Assembly: GCA_964627195.1 (NCBI GenBank)
Contig: CAZVJU010000001.1
Coordinates: forward strand, 9,066 to 73,065
Reading direction: 5' to 3'
DNA length: 64,000 bases
From: an uncultured Gammaproteobacteria bacterium
GTDB taxonomy: Bacteria > Patescibacteriota > Microgenomatia > UBA8517
Positions 6,547 through 45,549 of this stretch are shown piece by piece. The notes beneath the pieces are model-generated. The model ran no database searches. It saw nothing but the letters and a program-made list of their open reading frames with translations, and was not told the DNA's origin. Both the position numbers and the translations under genes were made by a program. Each line of letters starts with the position of its first letter. The first letter of the stretch is position 1.

Positions 6547-7551
6547 CTAGTGATACTTTTTTTCATTTTTGACAATTTCTCGGGCAGTAGTCAGTACTTT
6601 TTCTACTGCCTGATCAAACTGCAATCCTTCAATTACTGCAGCAGAACTGTCTCTGTGTCCACCCCCACCGAGTTCTCTTGCAATTTTTTCAGTGTTAAAA
6701 CGCCCGGCAGAACGGAAACTAACCATCAGTTTATTCTTCTCCTCTTCAACCATTAAGATACCAAAATCTCCTTCGCGCGTGCTCCCAAAAAACATATTTG
6801 CGGTTTGATTTTTCGCGGCTTCAGGTCTTCCACAATTGTCAAAAACATCGACTGGTATTGCACTCCAGAGAAAACTAAGGTCTTTTTCAAATTTTAATCT
6901 ATACAAAACCTCGCCGATAAATCTCACTAAACTAATAGGCATTCTTGCGAAAAGCTGATCGGTTATAAATTGCCGATCTGCTCCTGCTTTTATCAAAGTG
7001 GCAGCAGTTTCTAACGTCCGATCAGTAGTAAGAGGAATCTTAAAGCAAAGTGTATCTCCTATTATGCCGGATAAAAGTGCTGTAGCCGTACTCTTATCTA
7101 TCTCAAACTCCCAATCCCGGAAAATCTGATACAAAACCTCGGAGCACGAAGAAACTTGAGGATCAATAAGTGAAATATCGGTAAATTTTTCCCGCGGTTC
7201 ATGGTGATCGATTTGAATCTTATAAATACCTTTAGGTGGAATAGAAGTTTTGTCCCCGGTTACAAAATCCCAGCTTGGGGAATCCAAAATCAAAAAAAGA
7301 TCATAATCCAGAAAGTTAAATTCTTTATAATGTATCACCTTAATTTCTTCACTAAAAGGCAAAAAACCAACTACCTCGGGAATCGGATAGGGACTTATCA
7401 TTTGTACTTCCTTGCCAAGTTTTTTTAATACTGAGTATAAAGCAATTGCACTGGAAACCGAATCCGGATCTGGCCGTCGGTGGCAATTGATAAGAATTTT
7501 TTTAGCCTTTATTATCGTCTCTAAAATATCCTTTGATTCTTTGTAAGTCAT
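6547..7551 (-). CDS. DHH/DHHA1 phosphoesterase (NrnA-like oligoribonuclease / pAp phosphatase)
   Basis: Motifs HRRPDPDS, DHH (QIDHHEP) and a C-terminal GGGGH. Confidence 0.85.
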   Translation of the reverse strand: MTYKESKDILETIIKAKKILINCHRRPDPDSVSSAIALYSVLKKLGKEVQMISPYPIPEVVGFLPFSEEIKVIHYKEFNFLDYDLFLILDSPSWDFVTGDKTSIPPKGIYKIQIDHHEPREKFTDISLIDPQVSSCSEVLYQIFRDWEFEIDKSTATALLSGIIGDTLCFKIPLTTDRTLETAATLIKAGADRQFITDQLFARMPISLVRFIGEVLYRLKFEKDLSFLWSAIPVDVFDNCGRPEAAKNQTANMFFGSTREGDFGILMVEEEKNKLMVSFRSAGRFNTEKIARELGGGGHRDSSAAVIEGLQFDQAVEKVLTTAREIVKNEKKYH

Positions 7552-9158
7552 TGCGAGTGGGTAAGCTTATATAGAGTTACGCCTGCAACCTCCCATTGGT
7601 TTTCAACTTTAGTCCAGCCGAAATTGGCGATTTCTGCTTTTGGATTGTGCGTTGGATCGCATAAAAAATTCGGGAGCTCGCAAATAACAAAAAGTTGATC
7701 GGTAATTGTATCACCTGCACGCTGCGGGTCAATCTTCACCAAGGGTGCACCCCATACTTCCAAAAAATACTGGTATGCCCCTTCGTAATTTCTTTCAGCA
7801 ATAACCGCTAGGTTGAATTCCCTACTTTGTGATTCATCCACTATTTTTTGCGCAACCTCGGTAGTTCTTTGTAACTGCCTATTCGGCGGATATCGGAGAG
7901 GACTGAAACGAATATTGAGAAGGATGAGAAAAATTACTGCTGTAAAAATAATTAAATATGTCAACCAGTGCAATAACACTATTTTTTCTTTGGCACTCCC
8001 TATTAGTGTAGTAACCAGCCCGCCGAAAAGCATAAATGGTGCCGGGAAGAAAAAGCCATAATAATGATCATATATCTCCTGTTTGTAAAGCCCTAATCCC
8101 ACAAGGGCAACCCCCAACCAAACAAAAAGTAACAAGAAAGCATGAATATCTTTGTTATGAAGCAGTTTCACATTTTTCAATAACCTAACGATTAAAAGCG
8201 TAATTCCCAAGGCAAAAAATAAAGACAAAAACTTGCCGACCAAAAAGTACATGCCACTTAATAACCGTGTATTAATTTTTTCAACAATTGGCCACAGTTT
8301 AGGCACTGCCGTCCAAGGCCTTATTGACACCGTAGTTTGACGCTCGAAAAAAAACCGCTTGACTGCCGAAAAATTCCTCCATCCATGCCGAGCATCGAAA
8401 AGTGCTAGGGGGCTCATTAAAAGTAAAAAAATAAGCGTAGAGTATATAGTATTTTGTATAAAGTATTTAGTATTTTTTGTTTTTCTAAGGTGTAAAAATG
8501 CCAGGAACCAAAATACCCCTATTACCGGTGCCAAGAGTAAACCAAGATAATGCGACTGAAGAACAAAAGAGTAAGATACTCCAAGAATTATTAACCACTT
8601 CAATTCATTAAATCGCCATATTCTCCAAACCGAATAAATACAAAGTAATGCAAAAAAAGGCATAATATTCGGATTCCAGGAAGAATGGGAATAGACAATA
8701 ACAATCGGAGCAGTTGCATATAAAAGGCTGGCCAAAAATGCAGCTAATTTACCAAACCATTCTCGGGTAACATACCAAACAAAAAATACTGTCGCCAAGC
8801 CCAAAAGTGCAACCATTACTGCAGGCCCAACAGGAGAAAAGTTTGCCAATAAAAGTGCCGGAGCCATCATGTAGTAATACAAAGGGCCCAGGTACATATC
8901 ACCGATTGAGGTTCCGGGCCCGACTAAAATCGGATCAAAATCTACCAGAAGTTTTCTAACGACTATAACGTCTCTACCTTCATCTCCAAGAAAAGTCATG
9001 TATTCGTTGATGCGATAAAGCCGGAGAAATGCTCCTGCAAAAAGTATCATGGCAATAAGAAGTGCTTCGAACCGATTCGTTTTAACCCACTTCATCACAT
9101 TAGTAGTTAGTAGTCTGTAGCTAGTAAATAGGTTTTTTATCATCGAAGCTGATACCAA
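7548..9158 (-). CDS. GT-C-like polytopic membrane glycosyltransferase
   Basis: 536-aa ORF with about 12 TM helices, GDEGRDVIV after TM1 and a soluble C-terminal domain. It overlaps the upstream GT2 gene by 19 nt, so the two are probably translationally coupled. Confidence 0.7.
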   Translation of the reverse strand: MVSASMIKNLFTSYRLLTTNVMKWVKTNRFEALLIAMILFAGAFLRLYRINEYMTFLGDEGRDVIVVRKLLVDFDPILVGPGTSIGDMYLGPLYYYMMAPALLLANFSPVGPAVMVALLGLATVFFVWYVTREWFGKLAAFLASLLYATAPIVIVYSHSSWNPNIMPFFALLCIYSVWRIWRFNELKWLIILGVSYSFVLQSHYLGLLLAPVIGVFWFLAFLHLRKTKNTKYFIQNTIYSTLIFLLLMSPLALFDARHGWRNFSAVKRFFFERQTTVSIRPWTAVPKLWPIVEKINTRLLSGMYFLVGKFLSLFFALGITLLIVRLLKNVKLLHNKDIHAFLLLFVWLGVALVGLGLYKQEIYDHYYGFFFPAPFMLFGGLVTTLIGSAKEKIVLLHWLTYLIIFTAVIFLILLNIRFSPLRYPPNRQLQRTTEVAQKIVDESQSREFNLAVIAERNYEGAYQYFLEVWGAPLVKIDPQRAGDTITDQLFVICELPNFLCDPTHNPKAEIANFGWTKVENQWEVAGVTLYKLTHSQ

Positions 9159-9850
9159 AGTTTTAAAAGATCTCGCACACTTCTTAAAATTACTTTCAAA
9201 TCAGCTCCGGTTTGGTGACCAAATTTTCGGGGATAGTGGTGAACTCCAACTTCGGCAAATCTAAAACCTAACCTTTGAGCTTTCGTTAACATTTCAATTT
9301 GGGTTACTTTCTCTTCTCCAACAAGAGGTTGAACCTTTTCATAGACTTTCTTTCTGATCATCTTAAAACCGCAGGAATAATCTGTTACCTTTAGTCCAAG
9401 TAAAATCCGAGGAAGTATCTTTGCCCAAACTAAGGTAAAAAGTTTGCGTATAAAGGAGTCAGCACGTTTCATTCGAATTCCCAAGATTAAATCTGCTTTT
9501 GTATCCTTTTGCTTCTCGATAAACTTTACAATTTCTGAAAAATCAAACTGTCGATCAATGTCTGCAAAAGCTATCCACGGATACTTCGCTGCTTCATATC
9601 CGGCCTTGAGTGCACCTCCGTAACCTCTATTTGGTTGATTATGAACAACTCGAATATCTCTATACTTCTTGGACAGATTGTCTGCAATTTTTCCTGTAGC
9701 ATCCTTTGAACCATCATCAACAATAATTATTTCCCATTTATCTGCAATTCTTTGCAAAACTTTTTTTGCCTCGAGAATAGTTTTCTTAACGTTTTTCTCT
9801 TCGTTGTAGGCTGGAAAAAAGACTGAAAGCTCTTTAATCAGTTTTGCCAT
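9140..9850 (-). CDS. GT2 glycosyltransferase, polyprenol-phosphate sugar synthase-like
   Basis: Motifs FFPAYNEEKNV, VDDGSKD and ADIDRQ (DxD-like). It is soluble and 236 aa. Confidence 0.8.
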   Translation of the reverse strand: MAKLIKELSVFFPAYNEEKNVKKTILEAKKVLQRIADKWEIIIVDDGSKDATGKIADNLSKKYRDIRVVHNQPNRGYGGALKAGYEAAKYPWIAFADIDRQFDFSEIVKFIEKQKDTKADLILGIRMKRADSFIRKLFTLVWAKILPRILLGLKVTDYSCGFKMIRKKVYEKVQPLVGEEKVTQIEMLTKAQRLGFRFAEVGVHHYPRKFGHQTGADLKVILRSVRDLLKLWYQLR

Positions 9851-27469: not shown

Positions 27470-27994
27470 TTACCTCGACACTTGAATAACTTCACTAAGT
27501 TCGTCTGAACACGCGGCTATAGTTACTATTCCATTATTAACGTGAACAGTATATTCCGTATGATCGGTTGTAACTCCGCCTGGATCGGTAGGCAAACTTC
27601 CCAAATATGGGGAATCTGGCGAGGTTGCATTAACAAGTCTTGTTTCTAAATCAGCGCAGTCACCGGTTGCAGCGACTCCACAACCCGCAACAGCATTGCA
27701 TCCTGTAGTGATTCCTGTATTTACTATTTCTTTTACAGTATCATCGTCTACTAGGTCGCAAGATGCCAAAAGGCCATCCTCGTCAACAAGACATTCATGA
27801 ACTGCGGTTAATATTTGATTAACATCATTCCACCGCCTTGCGTTTCTGGTCTCAGCCAATCTTTGTGCAGGATTTAGCGCAGCAAAAACTACAACCAGAA
27901 GTACAGATAAAATTGCAACAACAAGTAAGATTTCAATTAGGGTAAATCCTCGCTTTAGGGTAAGTGTGGATTTATTTAATTTGAGCAGGTTCAA
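27470..27994 (-). CDS. Type IV pilin (candidate major pilin)
   Basis: Prepilin motif KRG|FTLIEILLVVAILSVLLVV. It uses a TTG start with GGAGGTGA 8 nt upstream. The C-terminal region is rich in paired Cys. Confidence 0.85.
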   Translation of the reverse strand: MNLLKLNKSTLTLKRGFTLIEILLVVAILSVLLVVVFAALNPAQRLAETRNARRWNDVNQILTAVHECLVDEDGLLASCDLVDDDTVKEIVNTGITTGCNAVAGCGVAATGDCADLETRLVNATSPDSPYLGSLPTDPGGVTTDHTEYTVHVNNGIVTIAACSDELSEVIQVSR

Positions 27995-40370: not shown

Positions 40371-41153
40371 TTAATCTTGATTGCGTATCCCTACAACACA
40401 GGCAAATCTGCCTTGGTGATTTAGAGGCAACTCCCTTTCACGAACATGCGAGAAAAATCTGTTATCGTGAACTGTATCAATATAACAATCGATAATATTT
40501 TTCTCTAAAACTCCGGAGTCAATTATTTGTTTTTTGCATAGTCCTACAAAGTCTACCTTATAGTGATTAGCATCAAGCTGATCAATAAATGGCTGCCATT
40601 CAGAGTCATCAACTTGTGAAGGGTTTTCCTTGATAAAAGAATCCTTGCGAGCAGCAGGACCAAGACCAACAATTACATCCTTGGGATTTGTGTTATAGTC
40701 ATTCTCCAACCTTCTAGTGGCTTTGGCGGCTATTTCCAAGTCCACACCCTTCCATCCCACATGAACCAGTCCCACAACTTCTTTTACTGGATCAAAAAAA
40801 ATAACCGGTAAACAATCTGCGATAAGAAGAAATAAATAGAGATTTTTCTTATCTGTAAGTATTGCATCAACTTTAATTGCATAATTGGAATCCAAAATGC
40901 TTCTTCCGGACCATTTCTTATCGGCAATTACAACCTCATCCTTATGAACAACCCACATACAAACAGTTTCGTCAACCGAAACATCAAGTTTTGTTAAAAA
41001 CCTCTTACGATTAGGAACTACCACTGAAAAATCCTGTACTTTTCCAAGAATCGAGTTAGCCATATTTCCATCTGCCTTTGTTGAAAAAGCATGGAAAAGT
41101 TTCGGAAATTTCAGGAGTTCGGGAATTTGATACATTGAATCAAAAAAATACAC
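40371..41153 (-). CDS. pgeF: YfiH/PgeF (DUF152, laccase-domain) protein
   Basis: Conserved blocks LLIADCLPV, LVHVGWKG and a C-terminal FFSH.R. Confidence 0.8.
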   Translation of the reverse strand: MYFFDSMYQIPELLKFPKLFHAFSTKADGNMANSILGKVQDFSVVVPNRKRFLTKLDVSVDETVCMWVVHKDEVVIADKKWSGRSILDSNYAIKVDAILTDKKNLYLFLLIADCLPVIFFDPVKEVVGLVHVGWKGVDLEIAAKATRRLENDYNTNPKDVIVGLGPAARKDSFIKENPSQVDDSEWQPFIDQLDANHYKVDFVGLCKKQIIDSGVLEKNIIDCYIDTVHDNRFFSHVRERELPLNHQGRFACVVGIRNQD

Positions 41154-41556
41154 CTATTAAAAACCCTGCGGGAAGTAGCCAGATAAAAATATTCAAAATG
41201 AAAAGTAAAGTATTAAAACTGTAAAGAGTTGAGTCCAAAAGGAAAAATGTTATCAAAATCCCGTCTGCTAACAATCCTTGTGCAATTGATCTATCATTCT
41301 TTATAGGTGAAAATTTGTATTTATAGTATAGAGTCGGATTTACTATAAAACTTTTACCTCGCAATTGAAGTGGTTCCTGGTTAAACCTGGCATAAGGAAC
41401 CGGGAAACCCGCATAGTATCCACATTCTAAAAGTTTTATATTCCCACAACCAACATTCATAACAATAAATGAAGAAAGAAGAGAAAGAGCTATTCCTATA
41501 AAAAAGAAAGCGGACAAGGTTAAAGTTTTCTTATTAAAACCGAACTTTTTGTTCAT
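41140..41556 (-). CDS. Hypothetical membrane protein
   Basis: 138 aa with an N-terminal TM, a Cys-containing loop and C-terminal TM helices. I recognise no family. Confidence 0.5.
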   Translation of the reverse strand: MNKKFGFNKKTLTLSAFFFIGIALSLLSSFIVMNVGCGNIKLLECGYYAGFPVPYARFNQEPLQLRGKSFIVNPTLYYKYKFSPIKNDRSIAQGLLADGILITFFLLDSTLYSFNTLLFILNIFIWLLPAGFLIGVFF

Positions 41557-41617: not shown

Positions 41618-41716
41618 TGCCTAATGTGCGGCGATATATCCGAAGTACCGCCACGGTATGCGTCTGGTTTGGATTATATCAAAAACTTGAGACATTTAGG
41701 ATATACCGCAGTTAGG
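41618..41716 (-). other. attC-like site with canonical core / inverse-core heptamers
   Basis: The minus strand reads GCCTAAC-T-GCGGTATATCC ... GGATATATCGCCGC-AC-ATTAGGC, with an inner hairpin TACCG/CGGTA. A further GTTAGGC lies at 41744-41750. Confidence 0.6.
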
Positions 41717-41798
41717 CGATGTCGCGAACGTAAGTGAGTGACGAGCCTAACAAGGCTTTGGCACCGTGCTGTGCGATGTAAATTTTTTATGTTGTCAG

Positions 41799-42323
41799 TT
41801 AATATAATAAATATTTTCTCGCGAATGAAAGTGCGGCAATCGTCTGACAATCTGCAATTTTACCATCGTCAAACATCTGGTATGCTTTAAAAATTGGAAT
41901 TCCTTTTATTTTTAAACCATGCTCGGTATCTTCCAATTTTTGTTTAGTTTTCTCCAAATTATCTGCCAAAAATACTGTGCATTGTTCTGCGCATAGTCCG
42001 CTCCATGGAGTGTATACTCCAAGTTTTTTCCATGACTTTGCAGTGTAACCAAGCTCTTCCTCAAATACTCTTTTTGCTGCTGCTAATGCGGTATAACCTT
42101 TTTCCTGTCCTCCGCCAGGCAGTTCTAGCGTCCATTGTTTTAATGTATAGCGATACTGGTATGTAAAAATTATTTTAGCCTTTTTGATCGGCACAATAAA
42201 TACTGATCGATCGGTCTCTTTGATATGAATAATGAAGTAATTACCTTCTACATGAGTAGGAGTAATGAATTTTTCATGAGACACATGGAACCATTGATTT
42301 TTATATACAACATTTTCAGACAA
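41799..42323 (-). CDS. NUDIX hydrolase (ADP-ribose pyrophosphatase-like), cassette ORF
   Basis: Nudix box GGGQEKGYTALAAAKRVFEEELGY. It uses a TTG start, and an in-frame TGA lies 3 codons upstream. Confidence 0.8.
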   Translation of the reverse strand: MSENVVYKNQWFHVSHEKFITPTHVEGNYFIIHIKETDRSVFIVPIKKAKIIFTYQYRYTLKQWTLELPGGGQEKGYTALAAAKRVFEEELGYTAKSWKKLGVYTPWSGLCAEQCTVFLADNLEKTKQKLEDTEHGLKIKGIPIFKAYQMFDDGKIADCQTIAALSFARKYLLY

Positions 42324-42523
42324 TTTAGTTCATGGTTTCATTTTAATATTATTCTTTTCCATAAAATAAATTAGAGTTATTCCTTATTACCCCTCCTTAA
42401 TAATTAAAATCAAATTTTCATCTCTAATCAATGCGCAAAAGCTTGAAATCTCCAACAAGATAAAAATTTATTTCGTATAATGTTTCGGTGTATGGGAAGT
42501 TTGCCTTATTTTTCCCATTAGGA

Positions 42524-42856
42524 TTAGTAAATTTGCAAACAGCCCAAGGTTTTGTCTTTTTCAAACGAATGAATGTCTTGACTATTTTTTGTCAAAAGTC
42601 GTTTGATGTTTTGAGTGGAAGTGTTACCTGTTCTGAGCCAAATTACCTTGGGAGGATAACCATAAATAAGGCTTCTTTCGTTGAAATCCGAGTCTTGAGT
42701 TACGAGAGTAAAACCATTGTCGCGAGCGTAGTTCCATACTTTCTCATCAGTGGCTGTTTGTAAATCCAGCAGGTAAACGTGGCTTGAACCTGAAAATAAA
42801 ACCTTAAGCTGCTTAACCAGCTTGCGGGAGATGTTTTGATCTAAGAGTAATTTCAT
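42524..42856 (-). CDS. PIN-like putative toxin (DUF5615 / Mut7-C-like)
   Basis: MKLLLDQNISRKLVKQL...VTQDSDF pattern, paired with an upstream DUF433-like gene. Confidence 0.6.
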   Translation of the reverse strand: MKLLLDQNISRKLVKQLKVLFSGSSHVYLLDLQTATDEKVWNYARDNGFTLVTQDSDFNERSLIYGYPPKVIWLRTGNTSTQNIKRLLTKNSQDIHSFEKDKTLGCLQIY

Positions 42857-43076
42857 GACCAGCCGTAGTTAGGGAATGCTCTCTTTCTGACGCATAGGTT
42901 AAAACTGCCTTAATATCCTCTTTGGTTAATTCGGGAAAGTCGCTTAATATTTTCTTTTTACTCATACCTGAAGAGAGCATTTTCAAAACATCATATACGG
43001 TGATGCGCATATCCCGAATAGTGGGTTGACCACCACGTTTACCTGGTTCGATACTGATAATTCCTTTATAATTCAT
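42813..43076 (-). CDS. DUF433-like putative antitoxin
   Basis: The GKRGGQPTIRDMRITVYDVLKML pattern typical of DUF433. It overlaps the toxin gene by 44 nt. Confidence 0.6.
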   Translation of the reverse strand: MNYKGIISIEPGKRGGQPTIRDMRITVYDVLKMLSSGMSKKKILSDFPELTKEDIKAVLTYASEREHSLTTAGHEITLRSKHLPQAG

Positions 43077-43264
43077 AGTTCTTATAATACTATAAACAAA
43101 AAATTAAGGCAAATTTGGACGGAAGAAAATAGCACAAGCTTAGTTTTATTCGAACCGTGCCATTTTTCTGTAACCCCATGTACCGTGTTATACGCCCCGA
43201 GCGAAACGAAGTGTAGCGAGAGCGCAGCGTGGTCGAGCGATAACGAGAAGAAATGGAGGCAAAA

Positions 43265-43516
43265 TTACAAATCTAGATCACCAATCCAAGTATCCACAAC
43301 CAGCTTTTTTGTTTGTTCCAGATAATCGTGAATACCCGTGAATATTTTCTCTCTACCATCTGGCAGAACAACCCTGATACTATCTTCATGTTTAGTATCG
43401 AATACAGACAGAACAAGCTTGTCACCACTCAATACTAATCTCCTAGTGCCGTCATCTCCTTCGACCACTTCAAGTCCATCAACATGAAATGGTATCTCTT
43501 TTGGTTGTTCTGCCAT
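43265..43516 (-). CDS. Hypothetical protein (83 aa), cassette ORF
   Basis: An ORF with GGAGG 7 nt upstream of its ATG. It is flanked by the 14-nt inverted repeat AATGGAGGCAAAAT / ATTTTGCCTCCATT. Confidence 0.5.
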   Translation of the reverse strand: MAEQPKEIPFHVDGLEVVEGDDGTRRLVLSGDKLVLSVFDTKHEDSIRVVLPDGREKIFTGIHDYLEQTKKLVVDTWIGDLDL

Positions 43517-43535
43517 ATTTTGCCTCCATTATTGT

Positions 43536-43698
43536 ATCTAACGTTTCCGAATATGAGAAGTTTTTGGCCGCTTCCTTACTATATTTTAAGAAAAGAAAAG
43601 GGCAAAAATTTGGGTTGAGAAAAATTTGCATACTTATTAATTTAATTGCGCAAATTTTTTGAACCTCATATTCGGTGTTGTGCGAAATAAGGCTCGGC
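43536..43698 (-). other. attC-like site 2
   Basis: The minus strand reads GCCGAGCCTTATTTCGCACAAC-A-CCGAATATGAG ... CTCATATTCGG-AAAC-G|TTAGAT, with an inner 10-bp hairpin AAAAATTTGC/GCAAATTTTT. Confidence 0.65.
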
Positions 43699-43728
43699 GT
43701 TTTTTCAAATATAGATGGAAAGAATTTT

Positions 43729-44013
43729 TTATTTTTTAATAATATAAGATACTAAGGAATAAACGAGATAAACAACCAAGAATGGAATTACTAATAAAGA
43801 AAAAAATTGAAGAATATAATCACTAAAGTAAAAACAACATTTTGGCAAACCTACGTGCTGTGGCCAATGTTCACATTCTATCTTGGGGCAGACTGCCAGT
43901 TTATACCTAATTTGGGAATATTCCCAGACTCTTAAATAATAGTAAATAACAGTTATTACTGTAGATGCAATAATTTTTTTCTTTGTGGGCTTAAAAAATT
44001 CTTTCCAGTCCAT
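43729..44013 (-). CDS. Hypothetical Cys-rich two-TM protein (94 aa), cassette ORF
   Basis: N-terminal and C-terminal TM helices flank CPKIECEHWPQHVGLPKCC. The gene is flanked by a perfect 22-bp inverted repeat. Confidence 0.5.
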   Translation of the reverse strand: MDWKEFFKPTKKKIIASTVITVIYYYLRVWEYSQIRYKLAVCPKIECEHWPQHVGLPKCCFYFSDYILQFFSLLVIPFLVVYLVYSLVSYIIKK

Positions 44014-44076
44014 ATTATTATCTTGGTTAATTGATTAATATAAAGTTTTCTATTTACTCTAGCCGAGCCTTATTTC

Positions 44077-44195
44077 GCACAACGTTCCAGTATATGCGAT
44101 GTTCCGCTACATCCATATTTTATCAAATTAAAAGTTGTAGTGGAATATGGGAGAGCGAAGTGCAACGAGCGAACCGCATACACTGTGTTAAGAGA
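44077..44195 (-). other. attC-like site 1
   Basis: The minus strand reads TCTCTTAAC-A-CAGTGTATGCGGTTCGC ... GCGGAACATCGCATATACTG-GAAC-G|TTGTGC, an imperfect palindrome with bulges. Confidence 0.65.
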
Positions 44196-44275
44196 CCTGA
44201 AGCAAATCAGTTACATTTTTTAAAACTGATTTGCTGAAAGTGCAACGAGGCAAGCAACTGAAAGGAGCGCAGAGT

Positions 44276-44644
44276 TTATTTTTTGTCAGAAGGTTTAATT
44301 TTTGAAAACAAGTGCTGGATAACTAACAACACTAAATAAATTATTGGTATGTAATAAAGAGCCAAAATAATTTTCGAGTAAGGATATTTTCCATAAATAC
44401 TGCAGCAACAAATCTCTGAAGCTTTGAAAACCTCTCCAGTTTTACCTTTGCTGTCATCTATCTTTGTATCAACTCCATCCTCGCAATATTTTTTACATTC
44501 AGGGTTAGCATCCGTCATGCACTGTATAACTCCCACTTGATCTACTCGAAAATTATGAATTGCAATAATTGAGCTATTCACCCCAACAAAAATTACAAGG
44601 GTTGCTAAAACAATTTTTAAATTAAATAAACTTTTCCAATTCAT
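44276..44644 (-). CDS. Hypothetical Cys-rich two-TM protein (122 aa), first cassette ORF
   Basis: N-terminal TM, a Cys-rich middle (CMTDANPECKKYCEDG...CCCS) and a C-terminal TM. Confidence 0.5.
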   Translation of the reverse strand: MNWKSLFNLKIVLATLVIFVGVNSSIIAIHNFRVDQVGVIQCMTDANPECKKYCEDGVDTKIDDSKGKTGEVFKASEICCCSIYGKYPYSKIILALYYIPIIYLVLLVIQHLFSKIKPSDKK

Positions 44645-44674
44645 TTTGAAACTTTTTCTGACAAAAAATAAATT

Positions 44675-44715
44675 TCTCTTAACTACTGTTTGTACGAATT
44701 GTTGTTCGTATAAAC
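44675..44715. other. attI-like region: an 11-6-11 recombinase-type palindrome plus the first cassette junction
   Basis: GTTTGTACGAA-TTGTTG-TTCGTATAAAC (44688-44715), and on the minus strand G|TTAAGAGA at 44683-44675. Confidence 0.5.
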
Positions 44716-44740
44716 GGTATTATTATGATAAAATAATACC

Positions 44741-45549
44741 ATGTTAATCGAAAAATTATAAGAATACTTGCGAATTGCTGGATACAGTGCAGAAACAATT
44801 AAAACATATACTTTGTGTACCCAAAAAATCTATTCCCGCTTCAAAAAACCGCTTAACCTCATCGCTTCTTCCGAATTCGCTGACTTTTTAGACGAGTTGG
44901 TAAAAAGAGGCAATTCCCCTTATACAATAAACCTATACCATGCTTCTCTCAAACTGGTCATAGAAAAAATTTATGATAAGCCTTTTTATTACAAATTTCC
45001 TTACGCAAAAAGACATAAAAAACTTCCCATTGTACTTTCCAGAAGTGAAATCAACTTGATTTTAAATAAAATTATCAATTCCAAACATAAACTTCTTATA
45101 GCGCTGGCTTATGGAGCCGGATTACGGGTAAGTGAAGCGATAGATCTAAAAGTAAAAGATATCGATCTTCAAGAATTAACCATTCATCTTAAAGATGCAA
45201 AGGGGAAAAAAGACAGGATAACGATCATTCCGGAAAAAATTAGATCTGATCTTCAAAATCTGATTGCGGGAAAGACGGCAAACGGTTACTTTTTGAGAGC
45301 GAACGAGGCGGAAGGCTAACAACAAGAACAGCTCAAAAAGTGTTTACATCTTCGATAAAAAAAGTCGGAATTAAAAAGGATGCAACTTTTCACTCCCTCC
45401 GTCATAGTTTCGCGACACACCTTTTCGAAAATGGAGTCGATATCCGCTATGTGCAAGAACTACTTGGGCATGCTAACATCAGAACAACACAGCTTTATAC
45501 CAAAGTTACAAATCCGAAGCTAAAAAATATAAGAAGTCCACTGCGATGA
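44741..45549 (+). pseudogene. Tyrosine recombinase (Xer/IntI-like) with an in-frame stop and a frameshift
   Basis: - Track ORFs 44768..45319 and 45340..45549 are two halves of one gene.
- After NGYFL the +1 frame continues [17 protein letters not shown]...[11 protein letters not shown]...[16 protein letters not shown], and the shift sits at the T5 run 45290-45294.
- Catalytic residues are present: R (GLRVSE), HxxR, H and Y.
- Upstream in frame, ATG 44741 gives MLIEKL, then TAA at 44759-44761, then EYLRIAGYS. Confidence 0.8.

Follow-up and report, generated by a model that had tools for sequence, protein, structure and literature searches.

A probable integron-like cassette array with long, putatively hairpin-forming sites beside a recombinase pseudogene in a Patescibacterium

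The 64,000-nt stretch analysed here (the window; positions 9,066 to 73,065 of contig CAZVJU010000001.1, GenBank assembly GCA_964627195.1) carries on its minus strand, from 44682 to about 41625, an array of about 3 kb of co-oriented small genes beside a tyrosine recombinase pseudogene, and one of these genes, an open reading frame (ORF) of 94 aa, lies within a perfect 22-bp inverted repeat. We consider it likely that a Woesebacteria-type Patescibacterium keeps here, in its chromosome, a sedentary platform of integron-like type, and that the two arms of the 22-bp repeat are the separated halves of the outer arm in a long site that would form a hairpin. The array in the window is a fossil, and its signature is historical rather than proof of ongoing excision. 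Comparison across arrays shows that the outer left arm of a site resembles the start of its own cassette and not the start of the next.

A perfect inverted repeat around the 94-aa ORF

Read on the minus strand, the 94-aa ORF (44013->43729) stands between G|TTGTGCGAAATAAGGCTCGGC (44083->44062) and GCCGAGCCTTATTTCGCACAAC (43698->43677), two 22-nt arms with 100% complementarity. Two copies of the 22-mer, and no more, lie in the window even with up to three mismatches tolerated, against none expected from 100 dinucleotide shuffles; the repeat had been described in an initial annotation of this DNA, and its coordinates and its perfection both hold. The unit, referred to as cassette 2, comprises the following features.

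44062..44083, minus strand: 5' arm of the 22-bp repeat; the G is the final base of cassette 1 and TTGTGCGAAATAAGGCTCGGC the opening 21 nt of cassette 2
43677..43698, minus strand: 3' arm of the 22-bp repeat; outer left arm (extension plus R'') of the cassette 2 site, with the end ...CACAAC
43542..44082, minus strand: cassette 2; orphan 94-aa ORF at 43729-44013; half-sites of 31.6 and 34.8 bits (position-weight matrices)
43542 to 43675, minus strand: cassette 2 site; L'' 43665-43675, loop of ~107 nt, L' 43547-43557, AAAC 43543-43546, G 43542
43992-44007 / 43716-43731: perfect 16-bp inverted repeat bracketing the ORF of cassette 2

In this arrangement, TTGTGCGAAATAAGGCTCGGC is the right arm and extension belonging to cassette 2's own site. 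Reconstructing the excised circle in silico and folding its site with DNA parameters, as had been proposed, gave a structure far more stable than that of the linear form: the folding energies are -45.5 (top) and -52.3 (bottom) kcal/mol for the circle site, with z-scores of -12.5 and -14.5 that are weakened by their derivation from mononucleotide shuffles, and only -21.2 (top) and -26.1 (bottom) kcal/mol for the linear site. The length of the repeat, previously put forward as a peculiarity, is a family trait rather than an anomaly of cassette 2, as arms of 16-27 nt are present in about half of the cassettes, usually with a conserved 2-nt mismatch (ACATC against GAAAT). The cassette 2 repeat is perfect because ATTTC stands where the family has this mismatch.

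The 94-aa protein is an orphan, its check returning itself alone, and no second context of its cassette was found, the array being identical in all 14 contigs read; the initial annotation had suggested seeking the same unit at another position, and a single array context is what was seen. Both arms stand at identical spacing in 10 contigs of the population, the arm is present in 0 of 98 other loci, and the 21-nt arm had 0 matches in a metagenome scan. These counts, together with the presence of only two arm copies in the window, bear on the possibility that the 94-aa unit is a conventional terminal-inverted-repeat element, i.e. a miniature inverted-repeat transposable element or small transposon inserted at this position. 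A perfect 22-bp terminal inverted repeat around a small ORF would suit such an element. The flanks (...GGAACG and ACCGAA...), however, show no target-site duplication, the arms end right beside the spacer and L'' motifs that are conserved, as expected from the architecture of the sites, and a transposase is absent. This explanation was rejected as highly improbable on the grounds of two copies, no duplication and no other context, and the observation that had been named in advance as decisive for it, namely the unit occurring elsewhere between the same repeats and target-site duplications, was not made in the contigs, loci and scan described. For cassette 2, a circle junction would read ...CATATTCGGAAACG|TTGTGCGAAATAAGG... 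and an empty site ...CATATACTGGAACG|TTAGATACAAT...

Outer arms match the start of their own cassette

Left and right half-sites alternate regularly upstream of the recombinase in relatives. A strict finder based on regular expressions and complementarity missed most sites and was replaced by position-weight matrices, which score 20-43 bits inside arrays against a maximum of 12.7/18.6 bits over the other 117 kb of the window scanned (both strands). The half-site motifs of the window return in the arrays of relatives, and on the cassette-sense strand the site consensus is [extension']-ACATC-NNN-TAAC-A-[L'', 11 nt]-GTTCGC...CNCCCAAAT-hairpin-ACTT-[L', 11 nt]-RAAC-G|TTA-NNN-GAAAT-[extension], and sites are ~130-180 nt long, or >700 nt with a gene in the loop. 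A lone left-half-site match of 18.6 bits (27543-27576, minus strand), located within an ORF at a great distance from the array and lacking a partner right half-site, is probably due to chance.

The own-versus-neighbour comparison covered 30 cassettes from 12 arrays, the reverse complement of each outer left arm being set against its own 5' end, that of the next cassette and all other 5' ends. Over positions 3-24, identity was 12.4 of 22 with the own 5' end, 7.2 with the next cassette and 7.5 with the others (Mann-Whitney; own versus others, p = 1.7e-7; next versus others, p = 0.88). The arms of these cassettes therefore match their own 5' end and not their neighbour's, which backs the earlier proposal of a right half that moves together with its cassette. 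On comparative grounds, this asymmetry is what crossover at G|TT would predict.

Pairs were counted on anchor-aligned sites, and the matrix seeds had been picked by L''/L' complementarity, the tested structure being derived from the same sequences; because of this circular derivation the absolute pairing values that follow are inflated, whereas the own-versus-neighbour contrast is a fair control and is unaffected. In the circle form, 65.8% of outer-helix cells are paired with a covariation score of 0.441, reached by 0 of 500 shuffles, compared with 46.9% and 0.248 in the linear form. The three variable R-box positions pair with the own start in 18-23 of 25 cassettes, versus 10-15 of 25 for the neighbour. 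Within the site, the L''/L' helix is 90.5% paired and shows compensatory changes at 10 of its 11 pairs, the AAC/GTT pairs being invariant; at the two mismatched positions (ACATC against GAAAT), 22-23 of 25 sites lack a pair, and a conserved asymmetric bulge of 1 nt against 4 nt separates the R and L stems.

Two relatives' loci, L018 and L042, share a cassette end: their sequences are homologous from precisely G|TT onwards and unrelated to the left of it. This break and the own-start match support the earlier proposal of excision and insertion by crossover at G|TT; the part of it that implied ongoing excision in this genome does not stand, given the pseudogene and the frozen array described below.

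GC-rich motifs are conserved in this AT-rich genome, at 43200-43250, 44240-44275 and 44140-44170 in the window and in intergenic regions of L005, L007 and L010. They include CTGCGCTYTCGCT-like tracts preceding R'' in roughly half of all cassettes and, inside loops, GTTCGCTC...CNCCCAAAT-hairpin-ACTT, and could be sites for accessory proteins.

Proposed mechanism and points against it

By analogy with attC, one DNA strand of the site would fold, with L'' pairing to L' and the R arms to each other in a duplex that mimics a double-stranded attI, and the recombinase would cut and exchange strands at G|TT. With the crossover inside the right arm, the outer right arm would become the first 11-27 nt of the cassette in the linear array and would rejoin its partner only once the cassette is excised as a circle. 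The 22-bp repeat of cassette 2 would be a split arm of just this kind. We infer the single-stranded folding of the DNA, the exact cleavage position and the strand cleaved, and the neighbouring recombinase family as the acting enzyme.

Several observations weigh against this scheme, in addition to the choice of shuffles and of matrix seeds given above. The right half-site is by itself a plausible double-stranded Xer-type site. The recombinase gene in the window carries a nonsense mutation and a frameshift and is dead in this lineage. Movement of the 94-aa cassette is only presumed, its protein being confined to one population and one array. Where a GC-rich element precedes R'', as in about half of the cassettes, the match to the own start spans 7-8 nt only. 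Unit 3 starts TTAGATAC, yet its own left half-site predicts TTATACGC, which fits the start of the next unit, TTATACG, and not that of unit 3. Finally, A|TT rather than G|TT is present at two window sites (42481|42480 and 41625|41624) and at the terminal sites of L010 (about 8559|8558) and L020 (about 6366|6365). Such A|TT sites are often the last in their array, and those of the window and of L010 have a linear right arm that complements their own R''. They could be dead sites at which no exchange ever took place, or their crossover could fall one base further left.

Other units of the array

From its recombinase-proximal end, the array encodes the 122-aa ORF, the 94-aa ORF, an 83-aa ORF, a DUF433/DUF5615 toxin-antitoxin pair and a NUDIX gene. 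The units other than cassette 2 are as follows.

44083..44682, minus strand: cassette 1; 122-aa ORF at 44276-44644; position-weight-matrix scores of 35.8 and 43.1 bits
44187-44195 (R'') and 44175-44185 (L''), minus strand: left half-site of cassette 1
44088-44098 (L'), 44084-44087 (GAAC) and 44083 (G), minus strand: right half-site of cassette 1
44656-44672 / 44275-44291: perfect 17-bp inverted repeat bracketing the ORF of cassette 1
42481..43541, minus strand: cassette 3; 83-aa ORF at 43265-43516; left half-site 43175-43194, right half-site 42481-42496
43517-43530 / 43252-43265: perfect 14-bp inverted repeat bracketing the ORF of cassette 3
41751..42480, minus strand: NUDIX cassette; ORF at 41799-42323; decayed left half-site ACATCGCACAGC-A-CGGTGCCAAAG (41756-41779)
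41625..41750, minus strand: ORF-less unit and terminal site; ACATC-GCC-TAAC 41711-41722, L'' 41699-41709, L' 41631-41641, CGCAC 41626-41630, A(41625)|TTAGGC

The generalization that each unit starts with the complement of its own downstream site fails for unit 3, as shown above, and for the NUDIX unit, which is complementary to its own 5' end in the extension only; the intact homologue of the decayed NUDIX half-site, in L007, reads ACATCGCACAAC. For unit 1 the pairing of its start, G|TTAAGAGA (44683->44675), with TCTCTTAAC (44195->44187) is present and weak, as only about three positions are informative, TTA and GA being family consensus. In the ORF-less unit, G|TTAGGC (41751|41750), which directly follows the decayed left half-site of the NUDIX cassette (41779-41756), and GCCTAAC (41717-41711) are both present as reported. 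The linear right arm of the same site (A|TTAGGC, 41625|41624) pairs with GCCTAAC equally well, however, so this unit cannot distinguish its own start from the neighbour's, and two of the three examples that had been cited for G|TT are informative.

Cassette 3 has A|TT in place of G|TT in its right half-site and encloses the toxin-antitoxin pair (42524-43076) in the loop between its half-sites. The same loop module is common to three arrays (the window, L005 and L010), whose upstream cassettes differ.

Each ORF of the array has an inverted repeat of its own close around it, with arms that overlap start region and stop codon. Counting only perfect inverted repeats of 14 bp or longer, the array has five, where 0.13 would be expected, and 18 control windows contain 0-1 each. 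The toxin-antitoxin pair has a bracket matched at 15 of 17 positions (43100-43116/42497-42513). Genes nested in L''...L' loops with a bracket of their own comprise this pair, a dCMP deaminase and a 108-aa ORF; such loop-nested genes occur elsewhere at L005 8194-8592 and 4184-4736 and at L007 9100-9426, the 108-aa ORF in L007 having a perfect bracket of 19 bp. These brackets could belong to the site stem as its distal part, be a feature of the RNA or be left over from the way in which cassettes form.

The brackets, both the perfect 14-17-bp repeats around the array ORFs and those of loop-nested genes, are the evidence that favours a role at the RNA level, in which the G|TT arm and the brackets would both exist because 5'-3' pairing of cassette transcripts is selected, whether for RNase III-type processing of a polycistronic transcript of the array or for control of translation or stability. 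Such a role could coexist with recombination. A search of the window with Rfam gathering thresholds nevertheless gave 0 matches; the extension is contiguous with the recombination arm and suits a DNA stem equally well, and the half-site motifs and the attI junction are left unaccounted for. We regard an RNA-level explanation as quite improbable.

The attI-like junction and the flanking chromosome

The junction between the array and the recombinase gene contains two features.

44672..44719, minus strand: attI-like insertion site; palindrome GTTTATACGAAC-AACAA-TTCGTACAAAC, spacer AGTA, crossover G(44683)|TT(44682), right arm TTAAGAGAAAT
44719..44747, minus strand: promoter-like match TTAACA-17-AATAAT (10/12), reading into the array; possible promoter Pc

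A 16-pair stem lies at 44684-44719. Promoter-like matches in total are not above those in shuffles, and the Pc candidate is therefore only suggestive. The junction, ...TAAACACTA-G|TTA-NNN-GAAAT, is kept upstream of recombinase orthologues in >15 loci, where the conserved consensus by the recombinase is ...GTTTATACGAA-N5-TTCGTATAAAC-ACTA-G|TTA-NNN-GAAAT. From its sequence, it would be a double-stranded simple site with two imperfectly inverted arms and a 5-nt centre, and it is this double-stranded junction that a folded cassette site would mimic.

In an alternative reading, the array consists of double-stranded Xer/dif modules, either an accumulation at a dif-like site beside the cell's own Xer gene, like that of integrative mobile elements exploiting Xer (IMEX), or a pdif-like chain with sites in alternately inverted orientation; the arms would then bind protein, with no folding. 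The attI and right half-sites read as an 11-nt arm, 5 nt and TTANNNGAAAT, like dif of Escherichia coli, which is GGTGCGCATAA-TGTATA-TTATGTTAAAT with TTATGTTAAAT as its XerD arm, and the right arm TTAYRNGAAAT resembles this XerD arm. Half-sites alternate in inverted orientation, and loop modules such as the toxin-antitoxin pair have different R'' arms in different arrays, both in favour of such modules. The recombinase, moreover, scores best on the XerA model, and an Xer-related subgroup from candidate phyla ('Cand'), of presumed Xer function, was delineated by Smyshlyaev et al. (PMC8138268).

On the other hand, the left half-site as a duplex has a centre of only 2 nt and is thus not a working double-stranded site. 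It also covaries with its partners beyond any binding consensus, through the compensatory L pairs and through outer arms of 16-27 nt that are cassette-specific, and the conserved 1-nt/4-nt bulge and 2-nt mismatch likewise speak against protein-binding arms. The recombinase is dispensable here, being a pseudogene, and a second Xer elsewhere in the genome is possible. GC skew does not change sign anywhere: to either side of 44.7 kb it is negative, at ~-0.15 before the array and ~-0.11 from 46 kb, and within the array it is weaker (-0.02 to -0.05); the locus is therefore not at the replication terminus, and a classical dif at the terminus was rejected on this basis. Considering both sides, we judge double-stranded Xer/dif modules to be unlikely and retain the interpretation of folded, integron-like sites.

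Conserved chromosomal genes bound the array. The flank on one side starts at a 138-aa ORF (41140-41556), homologous to L010 7972-8388, and continues with Cu-oxidase_4 and an ABC transporter; on the other side, from 45669 onwards, it comprises trmD, a sortase and glycosyltransferases. Genes on both flanks are nearly all on the minus strand.

The recombinase pseudogene

The array is adjoined by a divergently transcribed recombinase gene.

44741..45549, plus strand: tyrosine recombinase pseudogene (XerA/IntI-like); Pfam Phage_integrase and SAM_4; divergent from the array, beside trmD

The gene is interrupted by an in-frame TAA at codon 7 (44759-44761), which is Gln in orthologues, and by a 1-nt frameshift at a T5 run (45290-45294). 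A truncated ORF of 183 aa, or a shorter remnant, and an unchanged cassette order are found in 10 of 10 contigs shown, from 10 different sample assemblies. As the defects recur in independent assemblies, they are real, and the array is frozen in the population.

Intact proteins retrieved with the repaired translation number in the thousands; they are 268-270 aa long, share 60-76% identity with it and belong to Woesebacteria, other Microgenomates, CPR3 and Beckwithbacteria. The top curated family is NF040815 (XerA type), with full-length scores of 226, 212 and 235 bits (cut-off, 220); the second and almost equally close, TIGR02249 (integron integrase), reaches 186-210 bits against a cut-off of 265, with the match split in two stretches, and the XerC and XerD models score ~170 bits. 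Among solved structures, Pyrococcus XerA (PDB 4a8e, 7e-39) and Vibrio IntI4 (2e-38) are equally close. Alignment with VchIntIA (2a3v) matches query residues 10-175 with IntI 13-181 and 192-268 with IntI 241-317, so that 16 query residues replace 59 IntI residues and about 43 are missing. The IntI-specific insertion (around patch III, I2 helix) is thus absent, whereas canonical IntI loci in the same scan have 43-45 extra residues.

Through this inserted domain, integron integrases contact the extrahelical attC bases (PMC4792948; PMC9668308); it defines these enzymes and is thought to be the innovation that enabled the use of folded single-stranded sites (Messier and Roy 2001; MacDonald 2006; Escudero 2016, PMC4792948). 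A canonical integron with IntI was rejected on its absence. The integron-type reading given in the initial annotation is upheld in kind, the units being cassettes of an array with an attI-like junction beside a divergent tyrosine recombinase, and a classical integron is not supported.

The locus in relatives

Contigs with intact orthologues, from Woesebacteria and other Patescibacteria, have arrays made up of the same type of site and share a conserved synteny, [ABC transporter]...[variable minus-strand genes]<-|->[recombinase][trmD], in which the array content is wholly different between genomes, with ~17 genes in one and 2-6 in others. The flanks have 66-73% nucleotide identity, whereas the arrays have almost nothing in common. 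An array is present in every one of the six relatives for which 5 kb or more of upstream sequence exists. Among the 18 closest species-representative genomes (L014-L031), 13 have a contig that ends <600 nt upstream of the recombinase, which suggests that assemblies break at the variable array. In L106, a Gabija-like defence pair (OLD-family TOPRIM ATPase and UvrD-like helicase; 7114-9769) occupies the cassette position upstream of an intact recombinase, with trmD on the opposite side.

Short recombinase homologues without the IntI insertion also lie beside the same half-site motifs in cultured Firmicutes and a Spirochaete, namely at L035 10831-12910 (Saccharibacillus kuerlensis DSM 22868), L039 (Paenibacillus sp. 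NFR01), L093 (Lutispora saccharofermentans) and L040 (Spirochaetia). These arrays lie downstream of the homologue on the same strand, except in L093, where the motif matches are not on that side. In L035, the first 16 nt of each cassette are the reverse complement of its own left half-site.

Relation to known systems

The system has much in common with sedentary chromosomal integrons, attC arrays and clusters of attC sites lacking integron integrases (CALINs), such as the Vibrio superintegron and archaeal integrons (PMC9668308): a divergent tyrosine recombinase with an attI-like site; co-oriented, mostly promoterless small genes that include toxin-antitoxin pairs, in arrays hypervariable between relatives; imperfect-palindrome sites with RYYYAAC/GTTRRRY-type R boxes (e.g. 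GCCTAAC/GTTAGGC) and L''/L' stems; and a G|TT boundary with the right part of R' at the cassette 5' end. Unlike in integrons, the recombinase lacks the I2 helix region, and the R arm is conserved over 11-12 nt (TTANNNGAAAT) with cassette-specific pairing to 16-27 bp that reaches the ORF. The sites differ from attC in having the 1-nt/4-nt bulge instead of a 5-nt unpaired central spacer, the conserved 2-nt mismatch outside the R box, and loops of ~80-125 nt with conserved motifs (GTTCGCTC, CNCCCAAAT) that are able to hold whole genes; attC sites are about 57-141 bp long, compared with about 130-180 nt here.

Features shared with XerA or single-recombinase Xer-dif systems and IMEX are the best profile match and XerA length (NF040815; PDB 4a8e), an attI and right half-sites resembling simple dif-type sites, and the position of the site beside the recombinase gene. 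In XerS/difSL, the site likewise adjoins the recombinase gene. Unlike those systems, the locus has no GC-skew switch, a gene dispensable in its lineage, a covarying inverted partner half that is needless for a double-stranded Xer reaction, and a cargo of multiple cassettes rather than a phage or genomic island. Acinetobacter pdif modules are similar in being small, in including toxin-antitoxin pairs and in lying between alternately inverted, half-related sites, with inverted arms of one kind per module. They differ in using XerC and XerD rather than one recombinase, and here the array is chromosomal and adjoins the recombinase gene, every second site has a truncated (2-nt) centre and the arm complementarity is cassette-specific rather than consensus.

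We propose, tentatively and at somewhat less than even confidence, that short XerA/IntI-like recombinases without the IntI insertion run an integron class of their own with long rod-like folding sites, which may be present in Patescibacteria and, by site architecture, in Firmicutes (Saccharibacillus kuerlensis, Paenibacillus, Lutispora), Spirochaetia and perhaps Flavobacteriia. The literature searched contains no description of cassette arrays that pair with recombinases of this type in candidate-phyla-radiation bacteria, and an account may exist elsewhere. IntegronFinder requires the IntI-specific domain (PMC9024848). In 75 archaeal genomes, Ghaly et al. 2022 reported 539 attC sites and only 6 IntIs (PMC9668308), and in a 2026 study 97% of contigs with 'integron-type' recombinases had no recognizable attC sites (PMC13323075).

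Implications

The window on its own is modest, holding a fossil array and a dead recombinase. If the proposed reading is true, hairpin-site cassette recombination would work without the I2 domain, and a conserved cassette platform without the insertion would test the role ascribed to that domain directly; the system would represent either an ancestral state of integrons or an independent invention. It would also provide a candidate enzyme for many arrays filed as integrase-less, including CALINs and archaeal arrays, and cassette-specific repeats that reach the ORF might record how cassettes arise. Its occurrence in cultured Firmicutes makes the system testable in the laboratory. For the small-genome candidate phyla radiation, these arrays would add cassette-based gene capture to the known biology, with a cargo of toxin-antitoxin pairs, NUDIX and other enzymes and a Gabija-like pair.

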